Positions 80 through 42,670 of a stretch of 64,000 nucleotides of DNA are shown here, piece by piece. Under the pieces are notes generated by a model. It searched no databases and was not told the origin of the DNA. It saw only the letters and a program-made list of their open reading frames with translations. The stretch comes from an uncultured Solirubrobacterales bacterium (GTDB taxonomy: Bacteria; Actinomycetota; Thermoleophilia; Solirubrobacterales; Solirubrobacteraceae): the NCBI GenBank assembly GCA_963750895.1, contig CAVVSD010000006.1, forward strand, positions 1,443,525 to 1,507,524. Reading direction: 5' to 3'. The position numbers and the translations under genes are program-made. The number at the start of each line of letters is the position of its first letter. Position 1 is the stretch's first letter.

Positions 80-157
80 GGGCGCAACACTCGCGGCGCG
101 CGGCGACCGCGCCTTCGCCCGTTGCGGCCATCCTGCGCGATGGCCCGTTCCGGCCAG

Positions 158-22732: not shown

Positions 22733-25700
22733 TCAGGCGGCGGCGGTCGGTGCGGCTGCCGCGGGCGCGTGCACGACCGCGGGGCCGAGGATCTGCTCCA
22801 GCTCGGCGCGCAGCGTCGGCGTCGGCGCGACCTTGAACGCGTTGCCGAGCCGCAGGGTCCGTGGATCGCCGGCGGACAGCAGGAGCTCCAGCACCACCTC
22901 CGACTCGCCCGGGAAGGAGCCGAGGAGGTCCTTCAGGTCGTCGATCGCGGAGGCGGGCAGGCGCGCGGCGTCCAGGCGGAGCTTGAGCGGCGGCGGGCCG
23001 AGGCGCCGCGTGCTCGCCTCGAGCTTGGCCTTCTCGATCTCCGCCTCGGACGGCTCGAAGCGCTCGACGGTCTGCGCCACGAGCGACGTCTTCGTCGCCT
23101 CCTTGTGGTCCACCCTGCCGCGCACGAGCACGACCGAGTCGACGCCCAGCGCGCCCTCGTACTCCCCGAGCGCCTTGCCGAAGACGATGACCTCGACCGA
23201 CCCCTCGAGGTCGTCGAGCGTCGCGAACATCATGTGGTCGCCGTTGCGCGTGCGGATCTTCTTGGCCTGCGTGATGATGCCGCCGGCGGTGACCCAGTCG
23301 CCGTCCTTGCGCTCGGCGAGCTCGGCGAGGCCGCAGTCCACCCGGACGCGCAGCGCCTCGCGGACCTGCTTGAGCGGGTGCGCGGAGATGAACAGGCCGA
23401 TCGACTCCTTCTCGATCGCCAGCATCTCGGGCTGGTCGAACTCCTCCGACGGGATCGGCGGGTGCTGGGGCGCGGCGAACGCCGCCATCGCGCCGCTCTC
23501 GGCGGCGGTGTCGTCGAAGAGACCGTCGAAGATCGAGCCCTGCCCGATCTGGGCGTCCTGCTGGCTCTTCTGCCCCGCGGCCTGCGCCTGCTCCAGCACG
23601 GAGAGCATGCCCTTGCGCGACGCGCCGGTGGAGCCGAACGCCCCGCACTTCACCAGGGCCTCGATGGCCTTCTTGTTCACCGCCCGTGCATCGACCCGCG
23701 CGCAGAACTCCCAGAGCGACTCGAAGTTCCCACCCTCGGCGCGGGCGGCCTTGATCGCCTCCACGGCCGCGTAGCCCACGCCCTTCACGGCGTCGAGCCC
23801 GAAGCGGATGTTGCCCTCGTCGACGACGAACTCGTGGTCGGAGAGGTTGACGTCGGGCGGCAGGATCTCGATGCCCATCGACTCCGCCTGGTTGGCGAAG
23901 AAGGGCACCTTGTCCTTCGTGTCCATGACGCTGGAGATCAGCGCCGCCATGTACTCGGCGGGGTAGTTCGCCTTCAGCCAGGCCGTGCGGTACGCGATGA
24001 GCGCGTAGCAGGCGGCGTGCGAGCGGTTGAACGAGTAGTCGGCCGACTTCTCGTTCGTCGTCCAGAGCCAGTCGATGACGGCGTCGCTCGTGCCGGACGC
24101 GCGGCAGCCCTCGCGGAACTCCGGCTCCAGCTGCGCCATCGCCGCGCGGTTCTTCTTGCCGATCGCCTTGCGCAGATCGTCGGCGCGCGCACCCGAGAAG
24201 CCCCCGATCTCCTTGGAGATCTGCATGGCCTGCTCCTGGTACAGGATCACGCCGTACGTCGGGCCGATGATCGGCTCCAGCCGCGGGTCGGGGAAGCTCA
24301 CTGCGTCCGGGTTGCGCTTGCCCCGCGCGTACGTGGGGATCTGGTCCATGGCGCCGGGGCGGTACAGGGCGTTGAGCGCGACGAGGTCGTCGAACTCCGT
24401 CGGGCGCACCTTGCGCAGCGCCTCCTGCATGCCCTCGGACTCGAACTGGAACACGCCCACCGAGTCCCCCCGCGCGAGCATCTCGTACGGACCCGGGTCG
24501 TCGAGCGGCAGGGTCGTCATGTCGGGCCGCTCGCCGGTGGAGCGGGCGATGATGTCGAGGGCGTCCTCGATGACGTCGAGGTTGCGCAGGCCCAGGAAGT
24601 CCATCTTGAGGAGGCCGAGCTCCTCGACGGGCTTCATGGAGTACTGCGTCACGGTCCGGTAGACGCGCTGCCCGTCCTCCCCCGTGCCGGCGTCGGCCAG
24701 CTGCAGCGGGACGATGTCGGTCAGCGGACGGTCGGCGATGACGACCGCCGCGGCGTGGATCGACGAGTTGCGCACGATCCCCTCGAGACCCTTCGCGACG
24801 TCGATGATCTGCTTCGCCGTCGGGTCGGAGTCGTAGGCGCCCCTGAGCGGCTCGCCGTCGCGCAGGCAGTCCTCGAAGCTCGGCGGCCGGCCCATGATCG
24901 GGTCGGGGATGAGCTTGGCCAGACGATCGCCCGCGCCGTAGTCGTGCCCGAGCACGCGGGCGGCGTCACGCGTCGCCGCGCGCGGGAACATCTTGCCGAA
25001 GGTGACGATCTGCGCGACCGACTCGCGCCCGTACTTCTGCGTCACGTAGCGCATGACGCGCTCGCGCCCGCGGACGGAGAAGTCGATGTCGATATCAGGC
25101 ATCGACACGCGCTCGGGGTTGAGGAACCGCTCGAACAGGAGCCCGTAGCGAAGGGGATCGACGTCCGTGATCTGCAGGCAGTACGCGACGAGGCTGCCGG
25201 CCGCGCTGCCTCGGCCGGGGCCGACGGCGATGCCGTTGTCCTTCGCGTACTTCACGAAGTCCCACACGATGAGGAAGTACGCGTCGAAGCCCATCCGGTT
25301 GACGACCTCGAGCTCCATCTCCATGCGCTCGATCGCCTCGGCCGGCGGCGGATCGCCGTAGCGCTGCCGCATGCCCTCCATCACCCGCTCGCGCAGATAG
25401 GCCTTCTCGTCCTCCCCCTCGGGGAGGTAGCGCGGGATGAGCTGGCGGCCGAGCTCGATCTCCGTGCTGCAGCGCTCGGCGATCTCGAGCGTCGAGGCGA
25501 GCGCCTCGGGCCACTCGGCGAACGACTGCGACATCTCCTCCGTGGACTTCAGGAAGAACTCGTTCGTCTCGAAGGTCATCTTCGGCGCCTGCAGCGTCGA
25601 CTTCGTCTGCACGCACAGCAGCGCCGTGTGGTGGTGGTAGTCCTCGCGCCCGAGGTAGTGGACGTCGGCCGTGCCGACGAGCGGGCGGCCGAGCTCGCGC

Positions 25701-26302
25701 GCGATCTGCACGATCCCCTCGTTCGCCTGGTCCTGCAGCGCGAGACCGTTCTTCTGCACCTCGAAGAACACGTTGTCGGACCCGAAGATGCCGAGCAGGT
25801 CCTGCGCGTGGGCGCGCGCATCGTCCATCCGACCGTCGGTGATCCGCTGGCAGAAGCGGCTGGCGAGGCAGCCGGTGAGGGCGATGATGCCCTTGCCGTG
25901 GCGCTCGAGCAGCCCGAGGTCGACGGTGGGCTTCCCGCGCTGGAGACCCTCGAGGAAGCCCGAGGACGACAGCCGCACGAGGTTGCGATAGCCCTCGTCG
26001 CTCTCCGCGAGGAGCGTGAGGTGATTGCGCTCCGTGCGGCCCGCGGACGGGTCGGCCTTGTGATCGTCGACGAGGTAGACCTCGCAGCCGACGATCGGCT
26101 TGATGCCGTGCTTCTTGGCGGCCTTGTAGAGCTCGACGGCGCCGTTCATGACGCCGTGATCGGTGAGCCCGAGCGCGGGCTGGCCGAAGGCTGCTGCGCG
26201 CGCGGCGAGATCGTCGATCTTGCATGCGCCGTCCAGCAGCGAGTACTCGGAGTGGACGTGGAGGTGGGCGACAGAGGGGCTGCTCACGACCGGACGGAGC
26301 AT
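22733..26302 (-). CDS. dnaE: DNA polymerase III alpha subunit (DnaE1 type)
   Basis: PHP start HLHVHSEYSLLDGA, full-length core of about 1190 aa and an OB-fold tail. The ORF track extends to a TTG at 26362. Confidence 0.9.
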   Translation of the reverse strand: MLRPVVSSPSVAHLHVHSEYSLLDGACKIDDLAARAAAFGQPALGLTDHGVMNGAVELYKAAKKHGIKPIVGCEVYLVDDHKADPSAGRTERNHLTLLAESDEGYRNLVRLSSSGFLEGLQRGKPTVDLGLLERHGKGIIALTGCLASRFCQRITDGRMDDARAHAQDLLGIFGSDNVFFEVQKNGLALQDQANEGIVQIARELGRPLVGTADVHYLGREDYHHHTALLCVQTKSTLQAPKMTFETNEFFLKSTEEMSQSFAEWPEALASTLEIAERCSTEIELGRQLIPRYLPEGEDEKAYLRERVMEGMRQRYGDPPPAEAIERMEMELEVVNRMGFDAYFLIVWDFVKYAKDNGIAVGPGRGSAAGSLVAYCLQITDVDPLRYGLLFERFLNPERVSMPDIDIDFSVRGRERVMRYVTQKYGRESVAQIVTFGKMFPRAATRDAARVLGHDYGAGDRLAKLIPDPIMGRPPSFEDCLRDGEPLRGAYDSDPTAKQIIDVAKGLEGIVRNSSIHAAAVVIADRPLTDIVPLQLADAGTGEDGQRVYRTVTQYSMKPVEELGLLKMDFLGLRNLDVIEDALDIIARSTGERPDMTTLPLDDPGPYEMLARGDSVGVFQFESEGMQEALRKVRPTEFDDLVALNALYRPGAMDQIPTYARGKRNPDAVSFPDPRLEPIIGPTYGVILYQEQAMQISKEIGGFSGARADDLRKAIGKKNRAAMAQLEPEFREGCRASGTSDAVIDWLWTTNEKSADYSFNRSHAACYALIAYRTAWLKANYPAEYMAALISSVMDTKDKVPFFANQAESMGIEILPPDVNLSDHEFVVDEGNIRFGLDAVKGVGYAAVEAIKAARAEGGNFESLWEFCARVDARAVNKKAIEALVKCGAFGSTGASRKGMLSVLEQAQAAGQKSQQDAQIGQGSIFDGLFDDTAAESGAMAAFAAPQHPPIPSEEFDQPEMLAIEKESIGLFISAHPLKQVREALRVRVDCGLAELAERKDGDWVTAGGIITQAKKIRTRNGDHMMFATLDDLEGSVEVIVFGKALGEYEGALGVDSVVLVRGRVDHKEATKTSLVAQTVERFEPSEAEIEKAKLEASTRRLGPPPLKLRLDAARLPASAIDDLKDLLGSFPGESEVVLELLLSAGDPRTLRLGNAFKVAPTPTLRAELEQILGPAVVHAPAAAAPTAAA

Positions 26303-26377
26303 AGGTGGGGACCCGGACGCCAAGGGGCGGGCGGGCGGGTTGCAGACCCGCCCCGCCCGCAATCTGCGAAGGACTTC

Positions 26378-28267
26378 CTAACCGCGGGGCGCGAGGCCCT
26401 GCACGCGGTCGAACCAGCCGAGCAGCGAGGTCGCCGCGGCCAGGTCGCCGATCGCGGTCGCCGGCTCCTCGTCGGCAGGCGGCTCGGCCTGCGCGAGCAG
26501 CGGCAGCGCGCCGCGGGAGGTGAGCGTCAGGACGGCGTCCGCGCCACCGACGGCGCCCTCGGCGACGACCGGCTCGCGTGTCGTCGTCGCCGCGACGACG
26601 GCGGACCGCCTGCCGTGCTCGTCGACGCGCAGGACGCGCAGGGGCGCACCGTTCTGCACCACGACGCGGCAGGTCTCGGACCCGGCCACGTGCACGGTCA
26701 CCGCGAACGTGTGGCCGAGGGTCCACTCGCCCGGGACCGCGCTCGCGAGGGCGCGGATGACCAGGCCGGGATCCAGGGGCACCCCCGCGGAGACGAGCTC
26801 GGCGAGCGCGAGGCGCCGGCGGCGCTTGCGTGCGAGCCGCGCCAGCGGGAGGAAGAAGCGCCGGGTGCCGGCCACGCGCAGCCCGCTGGGCCACAGCGGC
26901 GCGCCGCCGCCCGCGAGCGTCGCGAACTGCTTCGGGGTCGCCTCGAGCGAGAACTCCGCGTCGGGCGAGGAGCCGTCGCGCATGAGGACGCGGCCGCCGC
27001 CGTCGGCGGACAGCTCGACCCGCAGCGGGCCGAGCCCGTCGAGGTCGAGGTCGTAGACGAGGTCGCGGCGCACCGTGCGCGCCTGGTCGGGCAGCAGCTG
27101 CGTGACGAGGCGGGCCGCGGAGGCGCGGTCGCGCTCGTCGAGCGCCGAGATGGCCCACGAGAGCCACGGCGTCCGCGGGTGCTCGGCGCTGATGACGTAC
27201 GGGATGACCTGCTCCGGCAGGGGCGCCGGCTCGTCGACGCGGTCCCCGGCCGGCGGCTTCGGGACCACCGCTGCCACGAGGTCCTCGCGGTCGCCGCGCA
27301 GCTTCGCGAGCGCCTCGGCGAAGGGATCGACGCCGCCGGGCATCGGCTCGGCGGGCTCCGCAGGCTGCGCGACCTCCTGCTCGCGCAGCGCGCGAGCGGC
27401 CTCCTCGAGCCCCGGCAGATGGCGGACGGCCGCGATGTCCGCGCCCTCGTCGACCGACTCGGGCGCAGGCGCCTCGCCGAGGACCTCGGCGAGCCTGGCC
27501 TCGGCCTGCTCGCGGGCGAGCTCGGCCAGGTCGACGGTGGCCTTCTGCAGCTCGAGCTCCGCCGACAGGCGGTCGCGCTCCGCGGAGACCTCGGCGATCC
27601 GCGCCTCGAGCGCGTCGATGCGCGCGCCGAGCTCCTGCGCGGTGTCCTCGGCTCCGCGTGCGCGGCGCTCCATGACCGCGGCGATCTGCTCGCTGCGCTT
27701 CGCGCGGCGCTCGGCGATGACCGAGCGCTCGACGACCGTCGCGCCGGGCTCCGGCGGGGCCGGCTCCGTGGCGCGCAGGATGGCGGCGGCGATGCTGCCG
27801 CGCCCCGCGGCCGGCTCGTCCTCGCGGTCGAACCGCCCAGAGGGCGGCAGCGGCAGCTCGACGTCCGCGGGCGCAGCGTCGCCCGCCTGGTCGGCGAGCC
27901 GTCGCGCGATGACCGGCGTGGCGTCGAGCGTCAGCGGGAACTCGGCGTGGCCGAGACCGAGCGCGAGCCCCTCCTCGAGGTGGTCGACGAGATCCGCCGG
28001 CACCGCGAACGTCGCGCGGAAGGCCGTCGGGTCGTCCTGCGGCGCGGCGTCGAGCGCGACGAGCGCGTGGCGGCGCGCGCCGTCATCGATGAAGAGCACG
28101 GGCGGCGGACCGCCGGCGACCCCGCCCCAGACGCCCTCGACGACGACGAGCCCGGAGCCGTCCGGCCCTCCGGTTCGCGACGCGCGGACGTCCTCGACGA
28201 GTGGCATGTCGTCCACCTCGGGATCGAGCACGGACGGAACGCTAGTGGGAGCATCGGACGAGTTCAT
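26378..28267 (-). CDS. Hypothetical coiled-coil protein, paralogue A: N-terminal DDG-x-x-RH domain + Ala/Glu/Arg coiled coil + C-terminal ~280-aa shared module
   Basis: 629-aa intact ORF with coding-like GC3. It aligns along its length with ORF 28334..30136 and, at the C-terminus, with the tail of ORF 30384..33065. No TM segment or signal peptide. Confidence 0.7.
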   Translation of the reverse strand: MNSSDAPTSVPSVLDPEVDDMPLVEDVRASRTGGPDGSGLVVVEGVWGGVAGGPPPVLFIDDGARRHALVALDAAPQDDPTAFRATFAVPADLVDHLEEGLALGLGHAEFPLTLDATPVIARRLADQAGDAAPADVELPLPPSGRFDREDEPAAGRGSIAAAILRATEPAPPEPGATVVERSVIAERRAKRSEQIAAVMERRARGAEDTAQELGARIDALEARIAEVSAERDRLSAELELQKATVDLAELAREQAEARLAEVLGEAPAPESVDEGADIAAVRHLPGLEEAARALREQEVAQPAEPAEPMPGGVDPFAEALAKLRGDREDLVAAVVPKPPAGDRVDEPAPLPEQVIPYVISAEHPRTPWLSWAISALDERDRASAARLVTQLLPDQARTVRRDLVYDLDLDGLGPLRVELSADGGGRVLMRDGSSPDAEFSLEATPKQFATLAGGGAPLWPSGLRVAGTRRFFLPLARLARKRRRRLALAELVSAGVPLDPGLVIRALASAVPGEWTLGHTFAVTVHVAGSETCRVVVQNGAPLRVLRVDEHGRRSAVVAATTTREPVVAEGAVGGADAVLTLTSRGALPLLAQAEPPADEEPATAIGDLAAATSLLGWFDRVQGLAPRG

Positions 28268-28333
28268 CGCGACGCACCGTAACGAGGTGTGTTGTGCTCG
28301 TGGAGGACATTCGTCCAGCCACGAGGGCCCACG

Positions 28334-30136
28334 CTAATGCCGTGACGGCAGGCCCTGCGCCCGGTCCAGCAGCTCCAGCAACGTCGTCATGACGTCCTCC
28401 TCGCCCGACAGCCACGCGTCGTCGTCGTGCGGCGGGGCGACCCGCCCGAGCAGCGCCAGCAGCGCGGCGGGCGACGTGGTGAGCACCGCCCGCACGGCCC
28501 CGCCCGAGGGCGGCGCGCCGACGACCTGCAGGCGCTTGCCGGGCTCGGCCACGATGGTGATCGGCTCCTGCCCGGGCACGTCGACGGCGACGGCGAAGTC
28601 GCTCTCGCCGGTCCACGTCGGCCGCACGGCGACCGCAAGCGCCTGGAGGAGCAGCGCCGGCTCCGGCACCACGCCGGCGGCGGCCAGGTCGCCGAGATCC
28701 ACCGGGACCCGCCGCGACTTCAGCAGGCGGCGGAGCGCCCGCCGGGACCCGTGGACGCGCACGGCGCCGCCGAGCCGCCGCGGCGCCCCGCCTGCGCCGA
28801 GCGTCGCGAGCGCCGCCACCGGGCCCGAGAGGCGGAACGCCGGCTCGCCCGGCGCGTCCTCATCCTTCGGCGCGACCTCTCCCGTGCTCCCTCGCAGCGT
28901 GACGCGGTACGCGCCGACGCCGTCGAGATGGATGTCGTAGACGAGGCTCTCCCCCAGCGTGCGGGCGCCGTCGGGCAGCAGGGAGATCAGGAAGGCGCCG
29001 GCCGCGCGGATGTCCTCGGCGGCGAGCAGGTCGATCGCCCCCGCCAGCCACGCGACGCCCGAGCGACGCTCGGGGCCGAGGCTGTCGCCCTGCAGGACCT
29101 TGCGGTCCTCGGGCGCCACCCGCCGCAGCCGGGAGCGCGCCCGGCGGCCGGGGCTCATCGCGGCGAGGTTCATGGTGTTGCGCAGCGGGTCGAACGGGAT
29201 GACGTTGCCGCCCTCCTCCCCCGCGGCCGGCAGCGAGCGGGCCCGCAGCTGGGCGAGCGCGAGGTCGAACGGGTCCTCCCCCTCGTCGGCGGCCGCGGAC
29301 GCGTCCTCCGCACGCCGCTCGTCCGCCTGGTCGCGCAGAGCCCGGGCGATCTCGCCGAGCTCCTCCGTCCCGACACGACCCGCGCGGGCGACCGCCTCCC
29401 GCAGCCCGTCGCGTTCCTCGCGCACCGTCTCGAGCTCGGCCCGCACTGAGGTGAGCTCGTCGCGCGCCTCGTGCAGATCGCCGGCGGCGGCCTCGGCGTC
29501 GCCGCGCGCGGTGCGCAGCGCGGCCTGCAGCCCCTCCGTCTGGGCGGCGGACTCGCGCAGGCGGGCGAGCTGCTCGTGGAGGCCCGCGTTGCGGCGCTCC
29601 TCGGCCGCCTCGGCATCCTCGAGGTCCTCCCGGAGACGATCGCGCTCCGCCGTCACCTCGGCGAGGTGCGCCTCGAGCGCGCGCATCCGCTCGGCGAGAT
29701 CCTCGAGCCCCTGCTCGGCGCGCTTCGCGCGATGCTCGGCGAGCACGGCGCGGTCGATCACCTCGGCCGGGACCGGCGGCGCCTCGGCGGCGACGTCGCG
29801 CACCGGCGCCTGCGGCACGCTCGGGAGCGCCGCGGGGAGGCGGATCTCGGCGCCCGCGAGGGACAGCAGGAGCCCGTCCGCTCCGACGCCCGCGAGCGCG
29901 GGCGGCAGGTCGAACGCGGCGTGGAAGGTCGACGGGTCGCCGGACGCACGGGGAGCGAGTGCCGGGACGACGTGGCGCTGGTCACCGTCGTCGACGACGA
30001 GGATCGGCGCCGCGTCCGAGGGCGCATCGCGCCAGGTCCCGTGGACCGTGATGCGGACCGATCCGCCCCCGCCGAGACCGCGCACCACCGATGCGACGGC
30101 GACGGGCTCACTGTCCCTCGGGGCCTCTGGCTCCAC
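28334..30136 (-). CDS. Hypothetical coiled-coil protein, paralogue B (same architecture as 26378..28267)
   Basis: 600-aa intact ORF (GTG start). The C-terminal 283 aa are closely similar to the tail of the flippase gene, including an LRNTMNLAAMSPGRR stretch that is identical in both. Confidence 0.7.
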   Translation of the reverse strand: MEPEAPRDSEPVAVASVVRGLGGGGSVRITVHGTWRDAPSDAAPILVVDDGDQRHVVPALAPRASGDPSTFHAAFDLPPALAGVGADGLLLSLAGAEIRLPAALPSVPQAPVRDVAAEAPPVPAEVIDRAVLAEHRAKRAEQGLEDLAERMRALEAHLAEVTAERDRLREDLEDAEAAEERRNAGLHEQLARLRESAAQTEGLQAALRTARGDAEAAAGDLHEARDELTSVRAELETVREERDGLREAVARAGRVGTEELGEIARALRDQADERRAEDASAAADEGEDPFDLALAQLRARSLPAAGEEGGNVIPFDPLRNTMNLAAMSPGRRARSRLRRVAPEDRKVLQGDSLGPERRSGVAWLAGAIDLLAAEDIRAAGAFLISLLPDGARTLGESLVYDIHLDGVGAYRVTLRGSTGEVAPKDEDAPGEPAFRLSGPVAALATLGAGGAPRRLGGAVRVHGSRRALRRLLKSRRVPVDLGDLAAAGVVPEPALLLQALAVAVRPTWTGESDFAVAVDVPGQEPITIVAEPGKRLQVVGAPPSGGAVRAVLTTSPAALLALLGRVAPPHDDDAWLSGEEDVMTTLLELLDRAQGLPSRH

Positions 30137-30178
30137 GAGAGAACTGTATGTGGCGGAACGGCCGCCTGCGAGGGGTGA

Positions 30179-30352
30179 CTAGGCCGAAGCCGAGTCGCCG
30201 CGACGGGAGGAGAACAACAGGGCGCCAACGACGAGCACGAGCAGCCCGCCGATGCCGGCGAGCGCGCGGGACGGGAGCTTGCCGCCGTACTTGCGGCTGA
30301 CGTAGAACCTGCCGCCCTTCCAGACGGCCATGCCGAGCAGTCGATAGAACAT
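30179..30352 (-). CDS. Small (57 aa) single-pass membrane protein
   Basis: MFYRLLGMAVWKGGRFYVSRKYGGKLPSRALAGIGGLLVLVVGALLFSSRRGDSASA. GAGGA lies 5 nt upstream of the ATG. It sits between the flippase and paralogue B. Confidence 0.5.
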   Translation of the reverse strand: MFYRLLGMAVWKGGRFYVSRKYGGKLPSRALAGIGGLLVLVVGALLFSSRRGDSASA

Positions 30353-30383
30353 TGTCCTCAAACGTACCCCGGGCAGCGGCGGG

Positions 30384-33065
30384 CTATCCGCCCGGTGCGA
30401 CCCCGGCGGCCAGGCCCTGCGCGCGGTCGAGGAGCCGCAGGAGACGGCGGACCGCCTCCTCGTCGCCCGTCATCCACGCGTCGTCCCCTTCGGGCGCCGG
30501 TGCGGCCCCGACGAGCGCGAGGAGCGCGGGCGGCGTCGCGCCGATGACGGCGCGGACGTCGCCGCCCGAGGGCGGCGCCCCGACGACGTGCATGCCGCTG
30601 CCCGGCTCGGCGACGACCGTGATCGGGTCACGGTCGGGGCAGTCCACGACGACGGCGAAGCCGTGTCGCCCGATCCAGCGCGGCTCGACGCTCGCCGCGA
30701 CCGTCCGCAGGAGCAGCGAAGGGTCCGGTACCGGCCCGGCGGCGCCGGCGAGGTCGCTCAGCTCCACCGGCGGCCGGCGCGCCTCCACGAGCCTGACCAT
30801 CGCGGTCTGCGACCCCCACGTGCGCGCCTCGGCGAGCCGCCGCGGCGCGCTTCCCGCGCCCAGCGGCGCCAGGGTGGCGACGGAGCCGGCCACCCCGAAC
30901 GCGGCGCCGTCGCGACGCCCGTCCGCCACGGCGGCCACCGACCCCGCGCCATCGCGCAACGTCACCCGGTGGACGCCGAGACCCTGCAGGTCGATGTCGT
31001 AGACGAGCTCGCCGTCCAGTGTCCGCGCCGCATCGGGCAGCAGCCCGAGCAGCAGCGCGCCCGCGGCGTCGGCGTCCTCCTGTGCCAGCCGCCCGATCGA
31101 GCGCGAGAGCCACGGGCCACGCGCCGCCCGGGCCGGCACGAGCGCCCGCTCGACCGGCCGGCGATCGCCGGCGGGCAGGCGGCGGAGCCGCGATCGCTCC
31201 CGGCGGCCGGGGCTCATCGCCGCGAGGTTCATCGTGTTGCGCAGGGCGTCGGGCTGAGGGCCCGTTCGCAGCCACGCCAGCGCGAGATCGAGCCCGTCGG
31301 CGCCGACGAGCCCCTCGCGCATTCGCGCGCCCTCCGCGCGGGCGGCGTCCAGCTCACGCCGCGCCCGGCGCAGCGACGCCTCCAGCCCCGGATCGACGCC
31401 GCCTGCCTCCCGCTGGCGCGCCAGCTCCCGCGCGAGCTCCGCGACCCGCCGCCGCGCGACGTCGTGACGCTCGTCCGTCGCGAAGGCGGACACCGCCTCG
31501 GGCAGCGCCGCCGCGGGCGGAGCCGGCTCGCCGGGCGCCCCGGGGACGATCTCGTCGAGCCGCTCGCCGCGACGCAGCGAGCGCAGCGCGCCGGCGACCC
31601 TGGACGGCCCGACCTGCGCCACGCCGACGGCGACGGCGAGCGCCAGTCCGACGGACAGCCCGGCCGCGAGCCGCAGCGCGCCGGGCTCCACGACGAAGAA
31701 GACGGCGGTCATCCACGCGATCGCGGGCACCGAGCTGAGGATGGGCACGAGCACGCCACCGCGAAGCAGCGGCCCGATGCCGAGCCCCGTCGCACGACAC
31801 GCCAGCGGCAGCCTGGCCGGCGCGATGAGCGCGCTCGTCCCCAGGCTCCCGAGCGCAGCGCCGATCGCGCCGTACCGGGACACGAGCACGATGGACAGCG
31901 CGACGTTCGCGACGCCCTCGAACACCGCGAGCCGCGCGATCGTCCGCGCCCGGCCGAAGGCGATGAGGACCTTCTCGGCGGGCGCCGTCGTGAGCCCGAC
32001 GGTCTGCACGACCATGAGCACGCTGACGATCGACGCGGTCACCGCGGGCGCGCCGCTCCCCAGCCACGCATCGACCGCGTCGTGCGCGAAGACCGCGATC
32101 CCGAAGGCGAGCGGCAGCGTGATCTGCAGCGCCACGCGGGTGGCGAGGCTGAACCTCCGGCGCACCTCGTCGTGGAAGCCGCGCGTCCGCAGGTCGGCCA
32201 CCATCGGCAGCAGCAGGTCGATGAGCGGCAGGGTGAAGCTCTGCAGGCCCGACTGGAGGCGCACCGCCGCCGCGTACGGCGCGGCCTGGACGGCGCCGCG
32301 CACGGCCGCGATGACCACCGTGTCCATCCGCTGGCCGACGAAGGTCATGCTGTCGGCGAGGAGGACGAGCGTGCCGAAGCGCCACATGCCCTTCGCCGCC
32401 TCGACCGACCCGCGTGGCGGGAGCAGGACGACGCGCTGGGCGCGGCGCAGGAGCCACCCCATCACCAGGCCGCCCAGGACGAGCGAGCCGCCGTACGCGA
32501 TCGCGACCCCGATGACCCCGGCCCCGGTCTCGACGGCCAGCACCGCGCCCGCGGTGAACCCCACGCTCGAGACGACCCCGCCCACGCTGTAGAGGTCGTA
32601 GCGCTGCACGGACTGCAGCGCGGCGGCGTACGCCCAGGTCGGGAAGACCACGAGCATCGAGACGCCGAGCACCACCATGCCGACCGTGAAGTCGTGCCCG
32701 TAGCCCTCGGCGGCGAGACCGGGCAGCAGCACCCCGGCGAGCAGGGACACGACGGCCGCCGCGACGCCGAGCACGCCCAGGATCAGGACGGATCCGCCGA
32801 GGGACGCAGCGAAGGCCTCGCGGCGACCGGCCGCGTGCTGGTCGGCGAGCACCTTCGTGAGCCCGGCCGCGAAGCCGGTGAACACGAGGGTGAAGACCAT
32901 CGTGAACGTGAACATCACGGCCCACGTGCCGAACCCGGGCTCCCCGAGGCGCACGTAGAGGTAGGGCGTCAGGACGAGCAGCGTCAGCGCATAGAGCCCG
33001 CGTGCCCCGTAGGAGCTGAGCGCGTTGCGCGCGAACCTGGCTCCCTCGCGGCGGTCCTTCTGCAT
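30384..33065 (-). CDS. MOP-superfamily polysaccharide flippase (Wzx-like, ~480 aa, ~14 TM) fused to a ~400-aa cytoplasmic extension ending in the shared ~280-aa module
   Basis: The N-terminal part is hydrophobic throughout with polysaccharide-biosynthesis-protein-like spacing. From about residue 500 there is a linker and short coiled coil, then the module (30384-31244). Confidence 0.75.
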   Translation of the reverse strand: MQKDRREGARFARNALSSYGARGLYALTLLVLTPYLYVRLGEPGFGTWAVMFTFTMVFTLVFTGFAAGLTKVLADQHAAGRREAFAASLGGSVLILGVLGVAAAVVSLLAGVLLPGLAAEGYGHDFTVGMVVLGVSMLVVFPTWAYAAALQSVQRYDLYSVGGVVSSVGFTAGAVLAVETGAGVIGVAIAYGGSLVLGGLVMGWLLRRAQRVVLLPPRGSVEAAKGMWRFGTLVLLADSMTFVGQRMDTVVIAAVRGAVQAAPYAAAVRLQSGLQSFTLPLIDLLLPMVADLRTRGFHDEVRRRFSLATRVALQITLPLAFGIAVFAHDAVDAWLGSGAPAVTASIVSVLMVVQTVGLTTAPAEKVLIAFGRARTIARLAVFEGVANVALSIVLVSRYGAIGAALGSLGTSALIAPARLPLACRATGLGIGPLLRGGVLVPILSSVPAIAWMTAVFFVVEPGALRLAAGLSVGLALAVAVGVAQVGPSRVAGALRSLRRGERLDEIVPGAPGEPAPPAAALPEAVSAFATDERHDVARRRVAELARELARQREAGGVDPGLEASLRRARRELDAARAEGARMREGLVGADGLDLALAWLRTGPQPDALRNTMNLAAMSPGRRERSRLRRLPAGDRRPVERALVPARAARGPWLSRSIGRLAQEDADAAGALLLGLLPDAARTLDGELVYDIDLQGLGVHRVTLRDGAGSVAAVADGRRDGAAFGVAGSVATLAPLGAGSAPRRLAEARTWGSQTAMVRLVEARRPPVELSDLAGAAGPVPDPSLLLRTVAASVEPRWIGRHGFAVVVDCPDRDPITVVAEPGSGMHVVGAPPSGGDVRAVIGATPPALLALVGAAPAPEGDDAWMTGDEEAVRRLLRLLDRAQGLAAGVAPGG

Positions 33066-33141
33066 CAGTCCGGGAAACGGTATAACAGGAGGACCCGGTC
33101 CGGATAGGGCGGATCAGCAGCCAGGACGGCAAGGGAGCGCG

Positions 33142-33987
33142 ATGAGGCCAGCGACGGCAGAGACGACCCCGGTGGTGACGATCGTCGTCGTCGCGCACTC
33201 CGTCCGCGACGAACTGGAGCGCTGCTTCGCCTCGATCGGCCGGTACGCGGGCGTCCCGGTCGAGACGATCCTGGTCGACAACGCCTCCGACGACGACACG
33301 CTCGCATGGGTCGCCGAGGCACACCCGGAGGTCGCCGTCGTCGAGCTCGCCGAGAACGTCGGCGTCGCCGCACGCGACCACGGACTGCGGCGCGCGCGCG
33401 GCCGGTTCACGATGTTCCTGGACTCCGACGCCGCGCTGACCGCCGGGGCGCTCCCGGCGATGGTCGAGGCGATGGACGCCCACCCCGGCTGGGGGCTCGT
33501 CGGACCGCACCTCGTCGGGGACGAGGGCGAGCACCAGTTCTCCGCGCGGCGCTTCCCGCCGGTGCTCCTCCCCATCCTGCGCCGTCCGCCGCTCGGTCGG
33601 TTCTTCGAGCACCGGCGCACCGTCCGCCACCACCTCATGACGGAGATCGACCCGGCGCGGACCCGCGAGGTCCTCTACGTCCTGGGCGCGTGCCAGCTCT
33701 TCCGGACGTCGCTGGCGACGACCGCCGGCCCGTTCGACGACCGGGTGTTCCTCGGCTGGGACGACGCGGACTGGTGCATCCGCATCCGGGACGCCGGCGG
33801 CGCCGTCGTCTACTTCCCGGCGGCGACGGTCGTGCACTCCTACCGGCGGCTGACGAAGCAGCAGCCGGTGTCGCGCGCCGCGCTGCGCCAGCTCCGCGCC
33901 CACCTGCTCTTCCAGCGCACCTACCTGCTGCGACGCCCCGAGCTGGTGGCCCTGCAGCGGAGGCTCGACCGCCGGTGGGCCGCGTGA
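33142..33987 (+). CDS. Family 2 glycosyltransferase
   Basis: VVTIVVVAHSVRDELERCFASI...ILVDNASDDDT...FLDSDA (DXD). GGGAG lies upstream of the ATG at 33142. Confidence 0.8.
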   Translation: MRPATAETTPVVTIVVVAHSVRDELERCFASIGRYAGVPVETILVDNASDDDTLAWVAEAHPEVAVVELAENVGVAARDHGLRRARGRFTMFLDSDAALTAGALPAMVEAMDAHPGWGLVGPHLVGDEGEHQFSARRFPPVLLPILRRPPLGRFFEHRRTVRHHLMTEIDPARTREVLYVLGACQLFRTSLATTAGPFDDRVFLGWDDADWCIRIRDAGGAVVYFPAATVVHSYRRLTKQQPVSRAALRQLRAHLLFQRTYLLRRPELVALQRRLDRRWAA

Positions 33988-34800
33988 CGGACCCCACCGT
34001 CTCGGTGGTGATCGTGGCGTGGAAGGCGCGCGAGGACACCCTGCGCTGCCTCGCCTCGCTGCGCGAGCACGCCGGCGTCCCCTACGAGGCGATCGTCGTC
34101 GACGACGGCTCGGAGGACGGCACGCCCGAGGCGGTGCGCGCCGCGTTCCCCGAGGCCACGGTCCTGGCCCGCCGGCCGAACGCCGGGCTCGTCGCCGGGC
34201 GCAACGCGGCGCTGCCCCACGTCCGCGGCGCCTACGTGCTCATGCTCGACGCCGACACCGAGGTGCGGCCCGGCGCGATCCCGATGCTCCTGGGGGCGCT
34301 CGAGCGCGACGACCGCATCGGGCTCGTCGCGCCGCGCCTCGTCCACCCCGACGGCACGCTGCAGCTCTCGTGCCGGCGCTTCCCGCCGTTCCTCATCCCG
34401 CTCATGCGCCGCGGCCCGTACGCGCGCCTGCACGACGACCCGCCGCTGCACCGCTGGCACATGATGAAGGACTACGACCACCGCACCGAGCGGCCCGTCG
34501 CGTGGGTGATCGGCGCCGCGCAGATGTGGCGGGCCGACCTCCGCGCGGCGACTCGGGCCCTACGACCGCCTCGTGTCGTCCTACGGCGGCGAGGACCTCG
34601 ACTGGTGCCTGCGCGTGTGGGACGCCGGGCTCGAGGTCCGCTACGTGCCCGACGCGGAGGTCATGCACGTCTTCCAGCAGGCGACGCGCCGCTCGCCGTT
34701 CGGGCGCAAGAGCCTGCGCGCCCTGCGCGACTGGTACTACCTGCAGTGGAAGCACCGGTCGCTGCGCCGCGACCGGCGGCTGCTGCAGGCGAACGCCTGA
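33984..34800 (+). pseudogene. Family 2 glycosyltransferase with one frame change
   Basis: The GTG at 33984 overlaps the upstream stop (GTGA). VSVVIVAWKAREDTLRCLASL...IVVDDGSEDGT...MLDADT is in the frame of ORF 33306..34898. LGPYDRLVSSYGGEDLDWCLRVWDAGLEVRYVP... is in the frame of ORF 34573..34800. An extra base appears near 34551. Confidence 0.75.
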
Positions 34801-34803
34801 CGG

Positions 34804-36195
34804 CTAGGTCTTCGCGCGACCGGAGGTCGCGACCACGCCGCCCCCGCCCCCGGCGTGACGCCCGGGCTCCGCGGTCCACGGCGCCTGCACCTTGTTGAGC
34901 ACGACGCCGGGCGGCCAGGCGCCGACGAGCCACAGCTGCCGCCGCGCCGCGGCGACGCTCGAGGTCGTGCTCCGCGACGGATCGACGACGAGCAGCGTCC
35001 GCTCCGCGCGGGACGCGAGCAGGAGGCTGTCGGCGTGGCCCTCGACCGGCGGACCGTCGATGAGGACCCAGTCGTGGGTCTGCAGGAGGTGGTCGACGAG
35101 CTCGGAGAAGCGCTCCGGGCGCAGGCGCGCCGCGGCGTCCGACGGCGCGGGACCCGCTGGGATGACGGTCGCGCCGGATGGGTCGATGCCCACGGCGATG
35201 TCGTGCACCGTGCCGGTGCCGGCCATGAACTCCGCGAGGCCGAGCATCGGCTCGGTGTGCGAGCCGGCCAGGATCGGACCCGCCCCCGAGCGGCGCAGGT
35301 CCGCCTCGATGACGGCGACGGTGTCCCCGTCCCCGCGGATCGCACGGGCGAGGCCCGACGTGACCGTGCTCTTGCCCTCGCCGGGGCGCGCACTGGTCAT
35401 GACGACGGTCCGCGCCGGCTCTCCGGCGAGCTCCAGGTTGAGCTTGAGCAGCCGGAAGGCCTCGGCTCCCACGGCGTCCCGCGGCCCGCGGGTGAGCGGC
35501 ACCCGCCCGAGGATCGACATGTCCAGCAGCGTCTCGTCCGCGTCGGTGATGCGCGGGTGCTTGTCCAGACGATCGACGAGCAGTGCGACCACGCCCGCGA
35601 TGAGCGCGGACAGCAGCACGCCGAGCCCGATGTACAGCGGCACGTTCGGGCGGGCGGGATCGGTCGGCGCCGCGGCCGTCTCCACGAGGGTCGCCTTCGA
35701 GGGCGCGCTGTTCTGCGCCTGGAGCGTCGCCACGTGGGAGACGAACCCGCGCGCGTACACGTTCGCGGTGCGGGCCGCCGCCTCGGGCGTGCTCCCCTCC
35801 GCCGTGATCTGCAGCAGCCGCGTCTGCTCCACCGGCGCGAAGCTCATCCGCCCCAGCAGCTCCGTGCGCGACGGACGGCCGGGCAGCTCGGCCCGCACGC
35901 GATCCGCCACCGTGGCGCCGCTCGCGAGCGCCGCGTAGGTGCGCGCGATCTGCTGGCCGAAGTTCGTGTCGACGTTCTCCGCCTGATCGGTCTCCTGACC
36001 GCCGACGTAGATCGTCGCGGTCGACTCGTAGACCTTCGGGAGCGAGAGCGTGGCCAGGACCACCGCCGCGACGGCCACGACGAACATCGCCAGGAAGGCG
36101 ACGCGGCGGCGCCAGACGACGGCGAGGAGGTCCTCGAGATTCACGCTTCTCCCTCCGGCATCATTAGAGTCCATTTTACGGACTGTTGGGCTCAC
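34804..36195 (-). CDS. Polysaccharide co-polymerase (Wzz-type, 2 TM) fused to a BY-kinase-like P-loop ATPase
   Basis: The N-terminal chain-length-determinant region lies between two TM segments. Walker A SARPGEGKST, A' VIEADLRR, B VLIDGPPV. There are no tyrosines in the last 60 residues. Confidence 0.8.
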   Translation of the reverse strand: MSPTVRKMDSNDAGGRSVNLEDLLAVVWRRRVAFLAMFVVAVAAVVLATLSLPKVYESTATIYVGGQETDQAENVDTNFGQQIARTYAALASGATVADRVRAELPGRPSRTELLGRMSFAPVEQTRLLQITAEGSTPEAAARTANVYARGFVSHVATLQAQNSAPSKATLVETAAAPTDPARPNVPLYIGLGVLLSALIAGVVALLVDRLDKHPRITDADETLLDMSILGRVPLTRGPRDAVGAEAFRLLKLNLELAGEPARTVVMTSARPGEGKSTVTSGLARAIRGDGDTVAVIEADLRRSGAGPILAGSHTEPMLGLAEFMAGTGTVHDIAVGIDPSGATVIPAGPAPSDAAARLRPERFSELVDHLLQTHDWVLIDGPPVEGHADSLLLASRAERTLLVVDPSRSTTSSVAAARRQLWLVGAWPPGVVLNKVQAPWTAEPGRHAGGGGGVVATSGRAKT

Positions 36196-36209
36196 GTCCA
36201 GCCCCGCAC

Positions 36210-37605
36210 ATGCGACCCCTGCCGATCAGCGCCCATCTCGCCAGCCCCCGACGGCTGCTCCCCGTGGGCGCCGGCCTGCTCCTGGCGGTCCTGTGGCCGG
36301 TCACCGCGTACCGCGTCTCGCCGGTGCTGCTGCCCGCCGTGCTCGCGCTCTGCGGCCTCGCGGTCGTCGTCCTGCGCCGCCCCGCGGCCGGGGTCGCGGC
36401 GGTCCTCGCGCTGACCCCGCTGCAGAACCTGACGATCGGCGGCGTCCGGCCGATGAACCTCGTCATCCCCGCGATCGCGGCGGGCCTCGTCGGCCTCATC
36501 CTCCTGCGGCCTACGGAGCCGGTGCGCGGCCCCGGCTTCCTCCTGCAGGCCGGCCGCGCTCGCGATGGTCCTCGCCGGGCTGGCCTCGTCGCTCCTGGCG
36601 ATCGACCCCGCCCGGTCGGTCAACGACATGACCGTCCTGCTCGTCGCGGCGGCGCTGCTGTTCGTGACGATGGAGTGCGGACGCACGCGCGAGGACGTCC
36701 TGCTCATCGTCGCGGGCGCCGCGGCGGGGCTGCTCGTCGCGGCCGGGCACGGCCTGCTGCAGCAGGCGTCCGGGAGCTTCGAGGCCTTCACCGCCGACAC
36801 GAGCCTGGACACCATCGGGCGCATCCAGGGCGCCTTCGGCCACCCGAACGCGTACGGCAGCTTCCTCGCGCTCCTCATGCCCGTCGCCGGCGCGCTGGCC
36901 CTGACGCGCGCGGCGAGCGCGCCCATGCGGCTCCTCGGCGCCGCCGCGCTCGCGCTCGCCGTGCCCGCCATCGTCCTGAGCTACTCCCGCGGCGCGATCG
37001 GCGCGGTGGTCGTCGGGACGCTGCTCTGGCTCGCCTTCGCCCGCCCGCGCGCCGCGCTCGGGCTCGCCGCCCTCGTCGCGATCCTGGGGGTGTCCTTCGC
37101 GCCGTCGGTCGTCCAGGAGCGCTTCGCGGAGACCTCGTCGGACGTGCCGCTGCGCTCGGACATCTGGCACGCGGCGCTCGACATCTACTCCCAGCACCCC
37201 GTGTTCGGGGCGGGGCTCAGCAACTTCTCCGAGGCCTACGAGAGCCTGCCGGCGACGATCCCCGGCGGCGCGCAGCGGCGGCTCCTGCACGAGACGCAGC
37301 TGCTCGTCCCGCCCCACGCCCAGAACCTGTACCTGAACGTCCTGGCCGAGCAGGGGATCGTGGGCTTCGCCGCGCTCCTCGTGTTCCTCGTCACGACGCT
37401 GTGGGTGCTCGTCGCCGCCACGCGCAGCCGAGAACCCACCGCGCGGGTGCTCGCCATCGGGATCGGTGCCGGCCTGCTCGGCTTCCTGCTGCAGAGCGGG
37501 CTCGACGCGCTGCTGTTCGGCGAGCACGCGGCGCCGATCTTCGCCCTCGCGGGTGTCGGCGCATGCCTGCTGCGCCTCGCCCGCGAGGCCGACGCCGAGG
37601 CCTGA
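36210..37605 (+). pseudogene. O-antigen ligase/polymerase (Wzy/WaaL-like) family membrane protein with one frame change
   Basis: The N-terminal 3-4 TM are in the frame of ORF 36186..38339. The remainder (ORF 36565..37605) contains SYSRGAIGAVVVG...HAQNLYLNVLAEQGIVG, typical of the family. The junction is near 36545-36556. Confidence 0.7.
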
Positions 37606-37616
37606 GCCGGGCGGGG

Positions 37617-38354
37617 TCAGGCGACGGGCTTCGTCGCCTCGAGCGTCATGGCCTCGACGGTGTTCTGCCACGGGGGACCGTGGTTCTCGAGGCCGTTGAG
37701 CTCGGCATGCGGGCTGGATTCGAACTCACGGCGGGCGACGTCGACGAACCCGGCCTCCCGCAGCTTCGCCGCGAGGTCGTCCTCGTCGTAGACCCAGGCG
37801 TGGCCCCAGAGGCGCATGAAGTCGTTGAACATCTGGCAGGGACGCTCGTGCGTCTTGCCGCTGATCGCGTCGAGGAACGGGATGTACTGCTCGAGGCGCA
37901 TCTCCGGGTTGCGGTCCTCGTAGAGGGCGATGATCTTGCGCAGATCGGGGGTCGTGAGCCGCACGACGCCGCCGGGCCGCAGCACGCGGTACATCTCCGC
38001 GAGCGCACGCCGGCCGACGTCCTCGGGCACGTGCTCGATGACGTGCTCGCCGAACACGTACTGCATGCAGCCGTCGGGGAGCGGCATCCGGCGGGCCATG
38101 TCGAGGTACAGGTCGCCCCCGACGAGGTCGGAGTTCAGCCAGCCCGGGAGCGTCACGGGCCCCGAGCCGATCTGCAGCCGCGGCGCGGCCGTGTCGGCGA
38201 CGTAGCGGTCGACGATGCGCCGCCCGCGGACGTGGCCGTGGCTGAGGAAGAACGGCAGCGACCGCGCCCGGAGCCACGCGTGCGTCACCGCAGGCCGCTC
38301 GGCCGCTCGTCTGCCGACAGGGGTGCTCTTGAGGCGTGATATCGCGCTGGTCAT
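37617..38354 (-). CDS. Class I SAM-dependent methyltransferase (type 11-like)
   Basis: GEHVIEHVPEDVGRRALAEMYRVLRPGGVVRLTTPD. The start is taken at MTSAISRL; the ORF track extends to 38474. Confidence 0.7.
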   Translation of the reverse strand: MTSAISRLKSTPVGRRAAERPAVTHAWLRARSLPFFLSHGHVRGRRIVDRYVADTAAPRLQIGSGPVTLPGWLNSDLVGGDLYLDMARRMPLPDGCMQYVFGEHVIEHVPEDVGRRALAEMYRVLRPGGVVRLTTPDLRKIIALYEDRNPEMRLEQYIPFLDAISGKTHERPCQMFNDFMRLWGHAWVYDEDDLAAKLREAGFVDVARREFESSPHAELNGLENHGPPWQNTVEAMTLEATKPVA

Positions 38355-38465
38355 CAGGCGAAACTCTAGTTCCTGGCGCATAGGCGACGCCAGTCCGGTC
38401 TGCAAAAGAACGCTTTTCGGGTCGTCGAGCCTATCCCGCACGCTCCGTTTTCCGTAGTGTCTGAT

Positions 38466-38487
38466 TTGAAGCAACTTGGTGCTTCAA
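38466..38487. promoter_or_regulatory. Perfect 8-6-8 palindrome in the divergent promoter region upstream of the priming sugar transferase
   Basis: TTGAAGCA-acttgg-TGCTTCAA, 40 nt upstream of the ATG at 38528, within an AT-richer 170-nt intergenic region. Confidence 0.35.
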
Positions 38488-38527
38488 GGCGTGACAGAAC
38501 CCGCAACGGAAGGCCGCCAGACCCGAG

Positions 38528-40039: not shown

Positions 40040-40953
40040 GCCGTCGGCACCGAGAGGCGCAGCCGGCGCCCGGCGCCGGCGCGCGCGGCGGGGAGGCCCA
40101 GCGAGGACTCACGCAGCAGCGCGCGGGGATCGCACAGCGCCGAGCGGACCATCGGCCGGGCAGCGTCGCGCCAGCGGCCGCGCGAGGCGTAGACGCGGGC
40201 CGCCTTCGCGTCGAGCATCGCGTGCGCGCGCCGCTCGAGCCGGGTGCCGCGGCGCTCCGGGTGGCGCTCGAAGAAGCGCTCGACGATCCGCCGCGCATCG
40301 CGCATGCCGGCCTCGATCCTCGCCGTCAGCGCGTTGTCGTGCCGGCGGTAGAGCGTCGCGGTGCGCCGCTCCCCCACGACCCGCGCGTGCTCGAACGCGC
40401 GCAGGATGAAGTCCCAGTCCTGCGAGACGATCAGCTCGTCGTCCCAGTCGCCGGTGCGCTCCACGACCGCGCGCGGGAACAGCAGCGCGTGGGGCCGGAT
40501 GTTGACCCGGCCGAGCAGCGTCGCCTCCGCGAGCGCGCCCTGCTGGCGCGACACCATCGTCCACAGCGGACGCATCCGCTCGTCGCAGTAGGTCGTCGCG
40601 CCGTACGCGACGTGGTCCGCGCGGCCGTCGAGCAGGTCCAGGAGCCGCCGCGTGCTGCCGGGCTCGAGGAGGTCGTCGGCGTCGATGTAGCGCAGGTACG
40701 CGCCGCGGGCGGCGGCCTGACCGGCGGTGCGGGCGCGCGAGAGGCCGCCGTGGTCGACCCGGACGTGGCGCAGCCGCGGGTCGCGGACGTCCGCGAGGAG
40801 GTCGGCGATCGGCTGGTCGTTGCCGTCGTCGACGACGATGAGCTCGAGGTCGCAGCCCTCCTGGCCCAGGGCGCTCGCGACGGCGTCCCGCAGCCACGGG
40901 ACGTTCGGCCGCCACGCGGGCATCATGAGCGAGACGGTGGGCGCCGAGGTCAC
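40036..40953 (-). CDS. Family 2 glycosyltransferase (paralogue of 41705..42610)
   Basis: VSLMMPAWRPN...ELIVVDDGNDQP...YIDADD. The GTG at 40953 overlaps the upstream stop (GTGA). Confidence 0.75.
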   Translation of the reverse strand: MTSAPTVSLMMPAWRPNVPWLRDAVASALGQEGCDLELIVVDDGNDQPIADLLADVRDPRLRHVRVDHGGLSRARTAGQAAARGAYLRYIDADDLLEPGSTRRLLDLLDGRADHVAYGATTYCDERMRPLWTMVSRQQGALAEATLLGRVNIRPHALLFPRAVVERTGDWDDELIVSQDWDFILRAFEHARVVGERRTATLYRRHDNALTARIEAGMRDARRIVERFFERHPERRGTRLERRAHAMLDAKAARVYASRGRWRDAARPMVRSALCDPRALLRESSLGLPAARAGAGRRLRLSVPTA

Positions 40954-41699: not shown

Positions 41700-41704
41700 G
41701 GCGC

Positions 41705-42610: not shown

Positions 42611-42670
42611 GCTGACCAGCGGAGCCGTGGCGTTGCATTGACCAGTCAAGAGGTGCATCATCGCACCGGA

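Follow-up and report, generated by a model that had tools for sequence, protein, structure and literature searches.

In a 64-kb stretch of DNA from an uncultured Solirubrobacterales bacterium (contig CAVVSD010000006.1; hereafter the window), we found a gene, P3, whose 893-residue product joins a Wzx/MOP-type polysaccharide flippase to a C-terminal pair of SCP2-fold domains. Comparison with related contigs indicates that the fusion is genuine and that purifying selection has kept it in three or more diverged lineages. The C-terminus of P3 is a ~330-residue piece from a P2-type gene, comprising a coiled-coil remnant, two short motifs and the tandem SCP2 module. Two things are new here: the kind of appendage that the MOP flippase carries, and the occurrence of the SCP2 fold in a widespread, unannotated protein architecture. 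The module is found in three neighbouring genes on the minus strand, present at the coordinates at which an initial annotation, made from the sequence alone, had placed three open reading frames (ORFs) upstream of dnaE:

P1, 26378..28267, minus strand: 629 residues, a diverged paralogue of P2 with the same architecture.
P2, 28334..30136, minus strand: 600 residues, with an N-terminal domain, coiled coil, linker motifs and tandem SCP2-like module.
P3, 30384..33065, minus strand: 893 residues, with a Wzx/MOP flippase, a linker and a tandem SCP2-like module.

The N-terminal ~490 residues of P3 match Polysacc_synt (PF01943; 41.8 bits against a gathering score of 28.2, E=1e-10), Polysacc_synt_3 (PF13440; 33.5 bits against a threshold of 23) and MurJ (PF03023; 32.8 bits against 27.4), which bears out the initial description of the third gene as a Wzx/MOP flippase carrying the module. 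A crude hydropathy scan gives ~13–14 hydrophobic segments between residues 24 and 482. The N-terminus is rich in arginine, as is the stretch past the last transmembrane segment (RSLRRGER). P3 is divided as follows, where A3 denotes our 33-sequence profile of the module:

Flippase domain, residues 1 to ~497, 31575..33065, minus strand: Pfam matches over residues 12–409 and the hydropathy scan.
Linker, residues 498–650, 31116..31574, minus strand: a coiled-coil remnant and two conserved motifs.
D-x-[LF]-x-x-ALA-x-LR motif in the linker, 31266–31298, minus strand.
LRNTMNLAAMSPGRRERSRLRR motif in the linker, 31179–31244, minus strand.
SCP2-like domain 1, residues ~651–765, 30771..31115, minus strand: confidently modelled by AlphaFold2 (predicted local distance difference test score, pLDDT, >95), with Foldseek matches to SCP2 folds.
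SCP2-like domain 2, residues ~780–885, 30411..30728, minus strand: AlphaFold2 model, A3 profile match, and Alkyl_sulf_C matches in relatives.

At the level of fold and family profile, the module consists of two SCP2-fold domains in tandem, related by internal duplication; the SCP2 fold had been guessed for each half from the pattern of its residues. This α/β fold combines N-terminal helices with a five-stranded sheet and a closing helix at the C-terminus. The AlphaFold2 model built with A3 (model ma96eb17e81c3) consists of two consecutive H-H-E-E-E-E-H-E-H units, with a pLDDT of 92.4 and a predicted template-modelling score of 0.89; it replaced an earlier model from a shallow 10-sequence alignment (pLDDT 63, weak second half). 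Searched against the PDB with Foldseek, the module matches mostly SCP2-fold domains with a probability of ~1.0, and the weak earlier model gave the same picture. The top matches are the C-terminal domains of the alkylsulfatases SdsA1, YjcS and Pisa1; further matches include the SCP2 domain of UbiJ (TM score 0.5–0.55), yeast and human SCP2, the C-terminal domain of Eis, TT1886, AF1534 and the N-terminal domains of the MycE/SpnK methyltransferases. The A3 profile, searched against all PDB sequences, gave the SCP2/nonspecific lipid-transfer protein (nsLTP) as its sole meaningful match (E=0.006); chains 2c0l, 1qnd and 1c44 align with the second half of the module, in register over the β-strands and the next helix. 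SCP2 is reached with the family profile only, and a phmmer search of the single P3 tail against PDB sequences returned no match. The two halves also align to each other in register by profile–profile comparison (hhalign, E ~3e-6, probability 74–88%), and the module is thus an internal duplication.

The window proteins fall short of the Pfam thresholds for SCP2: P1 scores 14.3 bits against 21.3 (residues 404–455, E=0.054), and P2 and P3 have no match. Relatives do pass, with SCP2 at 33.8 bits on the first half of protein P0043 (gathering score 21.3) and Alkyl_sulf_C at 27.2–31.5 bits on the second half of P0040, P0027 and P0035 (gathering score 27). Positions conserved throughout the family are aromatic, aliphatic, glycine or proline (W, L, P, Y, G), and no catalytic-type polar residue is conserved in the family module alignment.

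The three tails are homologous well past chance, with E-values of 1e-62 between P2 and P3 (53% identity over 331 residues), 4e-40 between P1 and P2, and 3e-17 between P1 and P3. All landmark motifs that the initial annotation had listed are found in the alignments, including the two that occur in two copies only. The module common to all three proteins is ~240–280 residues long, and tblastn finds exactly three copies of it in the window. The extent of the homology had been understated: between P1 and P2 it is not confined to the tail but runs the full length, through the N-terminal domain, coiled coil and tail, and because the two proteins align end to end they are complete paralogues. Between P2 and P3, homology of the tails stands but begins further upstream than described, at residue 268 of P2 and residue 569 of P3. 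The region shared by P2 and P3 contains the motif LRNTMNLAAMSPGRRxRSRLRR, which P1 is without. The corresponding features of P1 and P2 are:

Small N-terminal domain with a G-x-W motif, 29807–30136 (P2 residues 1–110) and 27940–28170 (P1 residues ~34–110), minus strand.
Coiled coil of P2, residues ~125–285, minus strand: coiled-coil-type Pfam and NCBIfam matches at residues 125–280.
Tandem SCP2-like module of P2, residues ~362–597, 28346–29053, minus strand.
Module of P1, residues ~367–626, 26390–27172, minus strand: a ~21-residue insertion in SCP2-like domain 2.
LRNTMNLAAMSPGRRxRSRLRR motif, 31179–31244 (P3) and 29149–29214 (P2), minus strand: invariant in P2-type and fused proteins.

The G-x-W domain (consensus V...G.W...L......F..P) is common to P1, P2 and most family members, and the P1/P2-type N-terminal domain has no Pfam or NCBIfam match. 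The coiled coil of P1 and P2, ~150 residues long, draws SMC/Rad50/filament-type noise matches from both databases, and the NCBIfam scan of the window proteins returned coiled-coil noise only. The basic LRNTMNLAAMSPGRRxRSRLRR motif is absent from P1-type and distant family members; it could be a targeting or interaction peptide. The insertion in P1-type modules is a ~21-residue loop, RRSAVVAATTTREPVVAEGAV, in SCP2-like domain 2 (window 26540–26610, P1 residues ~553–575), and the P2 and P3 types are without it.

The position of the junction in P3 is marked by ~110 stand-alone homologous flippases of ~506 residues, which stop where the P3 linker starts. Stand-alone Wzx/Polysacc_synt flippases of this length in Solirubrobacterales are 44–56% identical to P3 residues 1 to ~495 and belong to the same Pfam families, but they end just after the last transmembrane helix, whereas P3 carries the tail. 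A first metagenome scan with the full-length fusion alignment found nothing; a second, anchored on the LRNTMNLAAMSP motif, gave six loci. The carriers of the tail that we found are P3 (with the protein P0158 and the locus L009), the source of locus L008, and P0159 in locus L004, and there were no others. L009 is an independent 3110-bp JGI contig that matches window positions 32056–28947 at 98.8% identity with zero gaps, and it encodes P3 residues 338–893 in one frame, followed by a small ORF and P2. In L008 a P3-type tail (89% identity) is likewise followed by the small ORF and P2. P0159, from the much more distant contig L004, is an intact 809-residue flippase-plus-module protein with 64% identity to P3 in the flippase and 57% in the module (56–57% for the tail). 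Its linker is shorter and retains both conserved motifs, which are invariant in our alignment A5. The gap-free L009, L008 and the intact P0159 together argue that the fusion is genuine. Compared with L008, the window shows a ratio of nonsynonymous to synonymous substitution rates (dN/dS) of 0.27 in the tail (dS=0.23) and of 0.20 in the adjacent P2; the value for the tail points to purifying selection on the fusion. All family-invariant residues are kept in the fused tails of the three lineages.

That the P3 frame is instead an assembly or frameshift artefact, in which a flippase gene was joined to a separate module gene, is exceedingly improbable and effectively refuted by the zero-gap L009 contig across the junction and by the intact P0159, even though P0158 ends at 611 residues with a separate 181-residue gene called downstream, and even though the window has a frameshift of its own in its second GT2 gene. 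P0158 (99% identical to P3) comes from L003 (ENA ERZ25039586 contig_11916), a contig of the same species as the window with 98.6% nucleotide identity. L003 carries 50 indels in 21.8 kb; four of them fall in dnaE, and single-base deletions affect five further genes, namely Wzy, Wzz/BYK (two), both GT2 genes and P3 (two). Such a load marks an error-prone consensus, and its gene calls, P0158 included, are therefore unreliable. We rejected P0158 as proof of a frameshift artefact because L003 is riddled with indels, in dnaE as elsewhere, and because L009 agrees with the window. The frame switch in the second GT2 gene of the window (~33975–34797, plus strand) lies at ~34545–34549; the gene is intact in L003 and L004 (272–274 residues), and the switch reflects a true pseudogene or else an error of 1 bp in the assembly of the window.

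A very basic helix, GSRRALRRLLKSRR, ends the first SCP2-like domain of P2 (residues 463–476). In the P3 lineage the equivalent helix (residues 751–764, window 30771–30815) reads GSQTAMVRLVEARR, with several basic residues lost, and the same is seen in L008; P0159 retains the basic residues of this helix. The loss in P3 may reflect relaxed membrane or anion binding after tethering by the flippase.

An exhaustive profile search with the module alignment recovered 697 representatives at 50% identity, 537 of them with E<=1e-10. The members described here are drawn from the best 150 of the 697 representatives, of which 57 long ones were scanned with Pfam; word-indexed searches with the P3 tail or the A3 profile had returned 9–10 close relatives only and gave no architecture survey. 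The module is C-terminal in the family members checked, with one exception (P0140), and protein lengths range from 250 to 1190 residues. Among the 57 long members, ten match Alkyl_sulf_C (best E=2.4e-7) and six match SCP2 (best E=4.5e-8), and all further matches are coiled-coil noise; a flippase domain was found in none of the 57. P1 and P2 are members of this family, whose proteins begin with a small N-terminal domain, continue through a coiled coil that varies in length and finish with two SCP2-like domains. All family members with a source name are annotated as 'hypothetical protein', and the literature searched contains no description of a family combining a coiled coil with tandem SCP2 domains.

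The genes around P1, P2 and P3 bear on where the fusion came from. On one side lies dnaE, and on the other a polysaccharide island that separates P3 from argG:

dnaE (DNA polymerase III alpha), 22733..26362, minus strand: downstream neighbour, its start 15 bp past the P1 stop codon.
Small ORF of 57 residues, 30179..30352, minus strand: between P3 and P2, with an N-terminal YRLLGxAVWKG motif and one transmembrane helix.
Wzx/Wzy polysaccharide island, 33025..44998, no strand assigned: between argG and P3, from Pfam matches.
GT2 gene, 33025–33987, plus strand: Pfam match.
GT2 gene, frameshifted, ~33975–34797, plus strand: Pfam match.
Wzz/BY-kinase-like gene (Wzz and P-loop), 34804–36195, minus strand: Pfam match.
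Wzy_C polymerase/ligase gene, 36565–37605, plus strand: Pfam match.
Methyltransferase gene, 37617–38474, minus strand: Pfam match.
Bac_transf gene, initiating phosphoglycosyl transferase, 38528–40039, plus strand: Pfam match.
GT2 gene, within 41705–43372, minus strand: Pfam match.
2-hydroxyacid dehydrogenase gene, 44042–44998, minus strand: Pfam match.
argG, 45003–46322, minus strand: beyond the island.

The components of a Wzx/Wzy-dependent context (Bac_transf, three GT2 genes, Wzy_C, and Wzz with a P-loop) are thus present within 12 kb, with P3 at the edge of an island that is primed on polyprenyl phosphate, and past the island lie argG, argD, argB, argJ and argC, at 45.0–50.5 kb on the minus strand. 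The three module genes had been described as head-to-tail; all are indeed on the minus strand, but P3 and P2 are separated by the conserved 57-residue membrane-protein ORF, which contains MFYRLLGMAVWKGG in addition to its transmembrane helix. The product of this ORF may serve the coiled-coil/SCP2 proteins as a membrane partner. The dnaE product of the window is 96–97% identical to the dnaE products of two Solirubrobacterales metagenome-assembled genomes (MAGs). The window has ~75% G+C, and a 1894-residue ORF antisense to dnaE and P1 (22598–28282, plus strand) is no gene but a spurious long ORF of the kind typical of very GC-rich DNA.

A pattern scan of genome contigs with narrow patterns yielded two loci only. 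Two close MAGs (L001 and L002) and four metagenome loci (L010–L013) have the small ORF, a P2-like gene, a P1-like gene and dnaE, and no flippase. In L001 and L002, argG lies ~1 kb upstream of the small ORF (8001–9019 and 7924–8917, respectively), against ~12 kb of island in the window; no island separates argG from the small ORF in L001, L002 or L015. Orthologues of P2 with 85–98% identity occur in L001, L002, L009 and L012, and orthologues of P1 in L001, L002, L004, L011, L012 and L013. Homologues of the 57-residue ORF stand upstream of a family gene in L001, L002, L007, L008–L014, L015 and L017. In the more distant L005, L006, L007, L015 and L017 a single family gene follows argG, often preceded by the small ORF. 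dnaE lies downstream of the family gene in L001, L002, L004, L005, L006, L007, L011–L013 and L015. The dnaE by the family member in L006 (8626–13137) encodes 1503 residues with an intein (Pfam Intein_splicing). Linkage to dnaE is not universal, since in L016 (6001–8130) the 709-residue member P0153 is found away from argG and dnaE, beside unrelated genes including LigD and a sulfotransferase.

Because the family occupies the interval between argG and dnaE where no polysaccharide genes are nearby, P1 and P2 are resident genes independent of polysaccharide synthesis, and the ~12-kb island, which P3 borders, was inserted beside them. On this synteny we rejected P1 and P2 as polysaccharide accessory genes. 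Nor is there support for the suggestion that all three genes work as a set for the flippase: the P1/P2 family sits at the argG–dnaE position in genomes without nearby polysaccharide genes, the island is an insertion, and the 57 long members scanned are free of flippase domains. In L004 the fusion stands directly before a P1 orthologue (61% identity) and then dnaE, with the small ORF and P2 both missing, exactly the layout expected if a deletion had brought the flippase gene up against the middle of P2; the window lineage has the fusion plus an intact P2. Both fused modules fall at the base of the P2-type clade in a neighbour-joining tree. The simplest reading would be a single capture of the C-terminal half of a P2-type gene by the island flippase, after which the island spread or was retained.

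Several known systems resemble parts of these proteins. UbiJ, which acts with UbiK in the E. coli ubiquinone metabolon (PDB 6h6n/6h6o/6h6p), also combines an SCP2 fold with coiled-coil-forming helices and is among the best structural matches of the module, at ~15% sequence identity. UbiJ begins with its single SCP2 domain and pairs with UbiK through a short helix at the C-terminus, whereas here two C-terminal SCP2-like domains follow a long coiled coil or a flippase, so that the order is reversed. The window Pfam scan found no ubi genes near P1, P2 or P3. The module is not of the UbiJ family, and the resemblance is one of fold only. SCP2/nsLTP itself (PF02036; PDB 1c44, 1qnd, 2c0l) matches the module in fold and in the A3 profile search, but here the domain comes twice in a row, attached to either a coiled coil or a membrane transporter, and the window proteins stay below the Pfam thresholds. 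The alkylsulfatases SdsA1, YjcS and Pisa1 (PF14864, Alkyl_sulf_C) gave the top Foldseek matches, and Alkyl_sulf_C passes on domain 2 of several relatives. In those enzymes the C-terminal domain takes part in binding the alkyl chain of the sulfatase substrate. No metallo-beta-lactamase domain was found in P1, P2, P3 or the 57 family members scanned, and we do not class these proteins as alkylsulfatases.

Closest in design to P3 is MviN/MurJ (Rv3910), the mycobacterial lipid II flippase, in which a cytoplasmic, non-catalytic pseudokinase appendage regulates the pathway (PMC12599244). Like P3, it is a MOP-superfamily flippase extended C-terminally, by a cytoplasmic domain as is also predicted for P3, and regulatory cytoplasmic appendages on MOP flippases thus have a precedent. 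Unlike P3, MviN carries a pseudokinase and an extracellular carbohydrate-binding domain and acts through PknB phosphorylation and FhaA; P3 has no Pkinase-type match and falls outside the MviN/MurJ-pseudokinase (ActPs3) class. The literature searched holds no SCP2 appendage on a flippase, in keeping with the initial remark that no described flippase with such an appendage was known.

MOP flippases have an even number of transmembrane helices, twelve to fourteen, with both ends in the cytoplasm. This N-in/C-in topology, the positive-inside rule and the crude hydropathy scan together place the P3 module most likely in the cytoplasm, anchored at the membrane. SCP2 folds enclose hydrophobic ligands. 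Together with the precedent of UbiJ, for which it has been proposed that the SCP2 domain adsorbs on the membrane and accommodates polyprenyl tails (PMC9499169), this property of the fold suggests a lipid-engaging role for the P3 tail at the membrane, a reading to which we give about an even chance. The tail would sit at the inner face of the membrane and bind lipid. With lower confidence, the most attractive candidate ligands would be the lipid-linked repeat unit from the Bac_transf and GT2 enzymes of the island or the polyprenyl-phosphate carrier, in line with the Und-P or Und-PP-glycan binding that the initial annotation had put forward as a hypothesis. The lipid-bound tail could then present substrate to the flippase or gate it, and in the free coiled-coil proteins P1 and P2 the module would be the end that engages lipid or membrane.

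Several observations weigh against a lipid-engaging tail. The fusion is rare, with no flippase in the long family members scanned and no tail on the ~110 homologous flippases; the window proteins themselves are below the Pfam SCP2 thresholds; and the P3 lineage is without several basic residues of the conserved basic helix. In addition, the SCP2-fold domains of Eis, of the alkylsulfatase C-terminus and of the MycE/SpnK N-terminus are structural or oligomerisation elements and not carriers. Finally, because the family is linked to dnaE, and not to envelope genes, in most loci examined, its gene context lends no independent support to a polyprenyl ligand.

Alternatively, the module would be mainly a protein–protein docking or oligomerisation unit. 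P3 would then pair with P2, with P1 or with itself, tethering the flippase to a coiled-coil scaffold and thereby positioning or clustering polysaccharide export, with lipid binding secondary or absent. We consider this possible, if on the unlikely side. The long coiled coils of P1 and P2 are typical of scaffold proteins, the module is common to three genes that adjoin, and in the MycE/SpnK, Eis and alkylsulfatase domains matched by Foldseek the fold has a structural or oligomeric part. The M. tuberculosis MviN is moreover a flippase whose cytoplasmic appendage recruits a regulator (PMC12599244). L004, however, has the fusion and no free P2, so that a P2 partner is dispensable, and the conserved positions, mostly core-type hydrophobics and glycines, give no pointer to a conserved interface.

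It is quite unlikely, in our judgement, that the family is tied to replication or the cell cycle, for example as a membrane or nucleoid tether expressed with dnaE, and that the flippase fusion is a tolerated by-product of insertion and deletion whose tail is kept as harmless or merely protein-stabilising. Most loci examined keep the small ORF, the family gene and dnaE together, 15–80 bp apart, the island is clearly inserted, the L004 fusion occupies the exact place of the small ORF and P2 as a deletion would leave it, and the module has the very basic helix described above. Against a by-product, the tail is under purifying selection similar to that on P2, and it is intact in three lineages down to 56–57% identity with every family-invariant residue kept. 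Gene adjacency inside one bacterial order is, moreover, weak evidence of shared function, and the family member in L016 lies away from dnaE.

To our knowledge, how Wzx acquires and recognises its lipid-linked substrates, and which accessory factors deliver them or gate the flippase, is poorly understood. A Wzx fused to a lipid-carrier-type fold, and kept so by selection, offers a concrete and testable handle on substrate acquisition. The analysis also defines a sizeable unannotated family, with ~700 representatives at 50% identity; most of the Solirubrobacterales-type loci that we examined, which come from an abundant order of soil actinobacteria, couple it with dnaE and with the gene for a small membrane protein. 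The window presents a clean case of domain capture, in which an inserted island took a domain from the resident gene at its border. Within the lipid-engaging reading of the P3 tail, a bolder form, which we regard as doubtful, would make the tandem SCP2 module a dedicated cytoplasmic chaperone for polyprenyl-phosphate-linked lipids that, on Wzx, captures the repeat unit or recycles the carrier and hands it to the flippase. If this were true, P3 would have the first built-in substrate-delivery device on a polysaccharide flippase, and the free P1 and P2 proteins with the small transmembrane protein would represent a new class of bacterial coiled-coil lipid-handling tethers.

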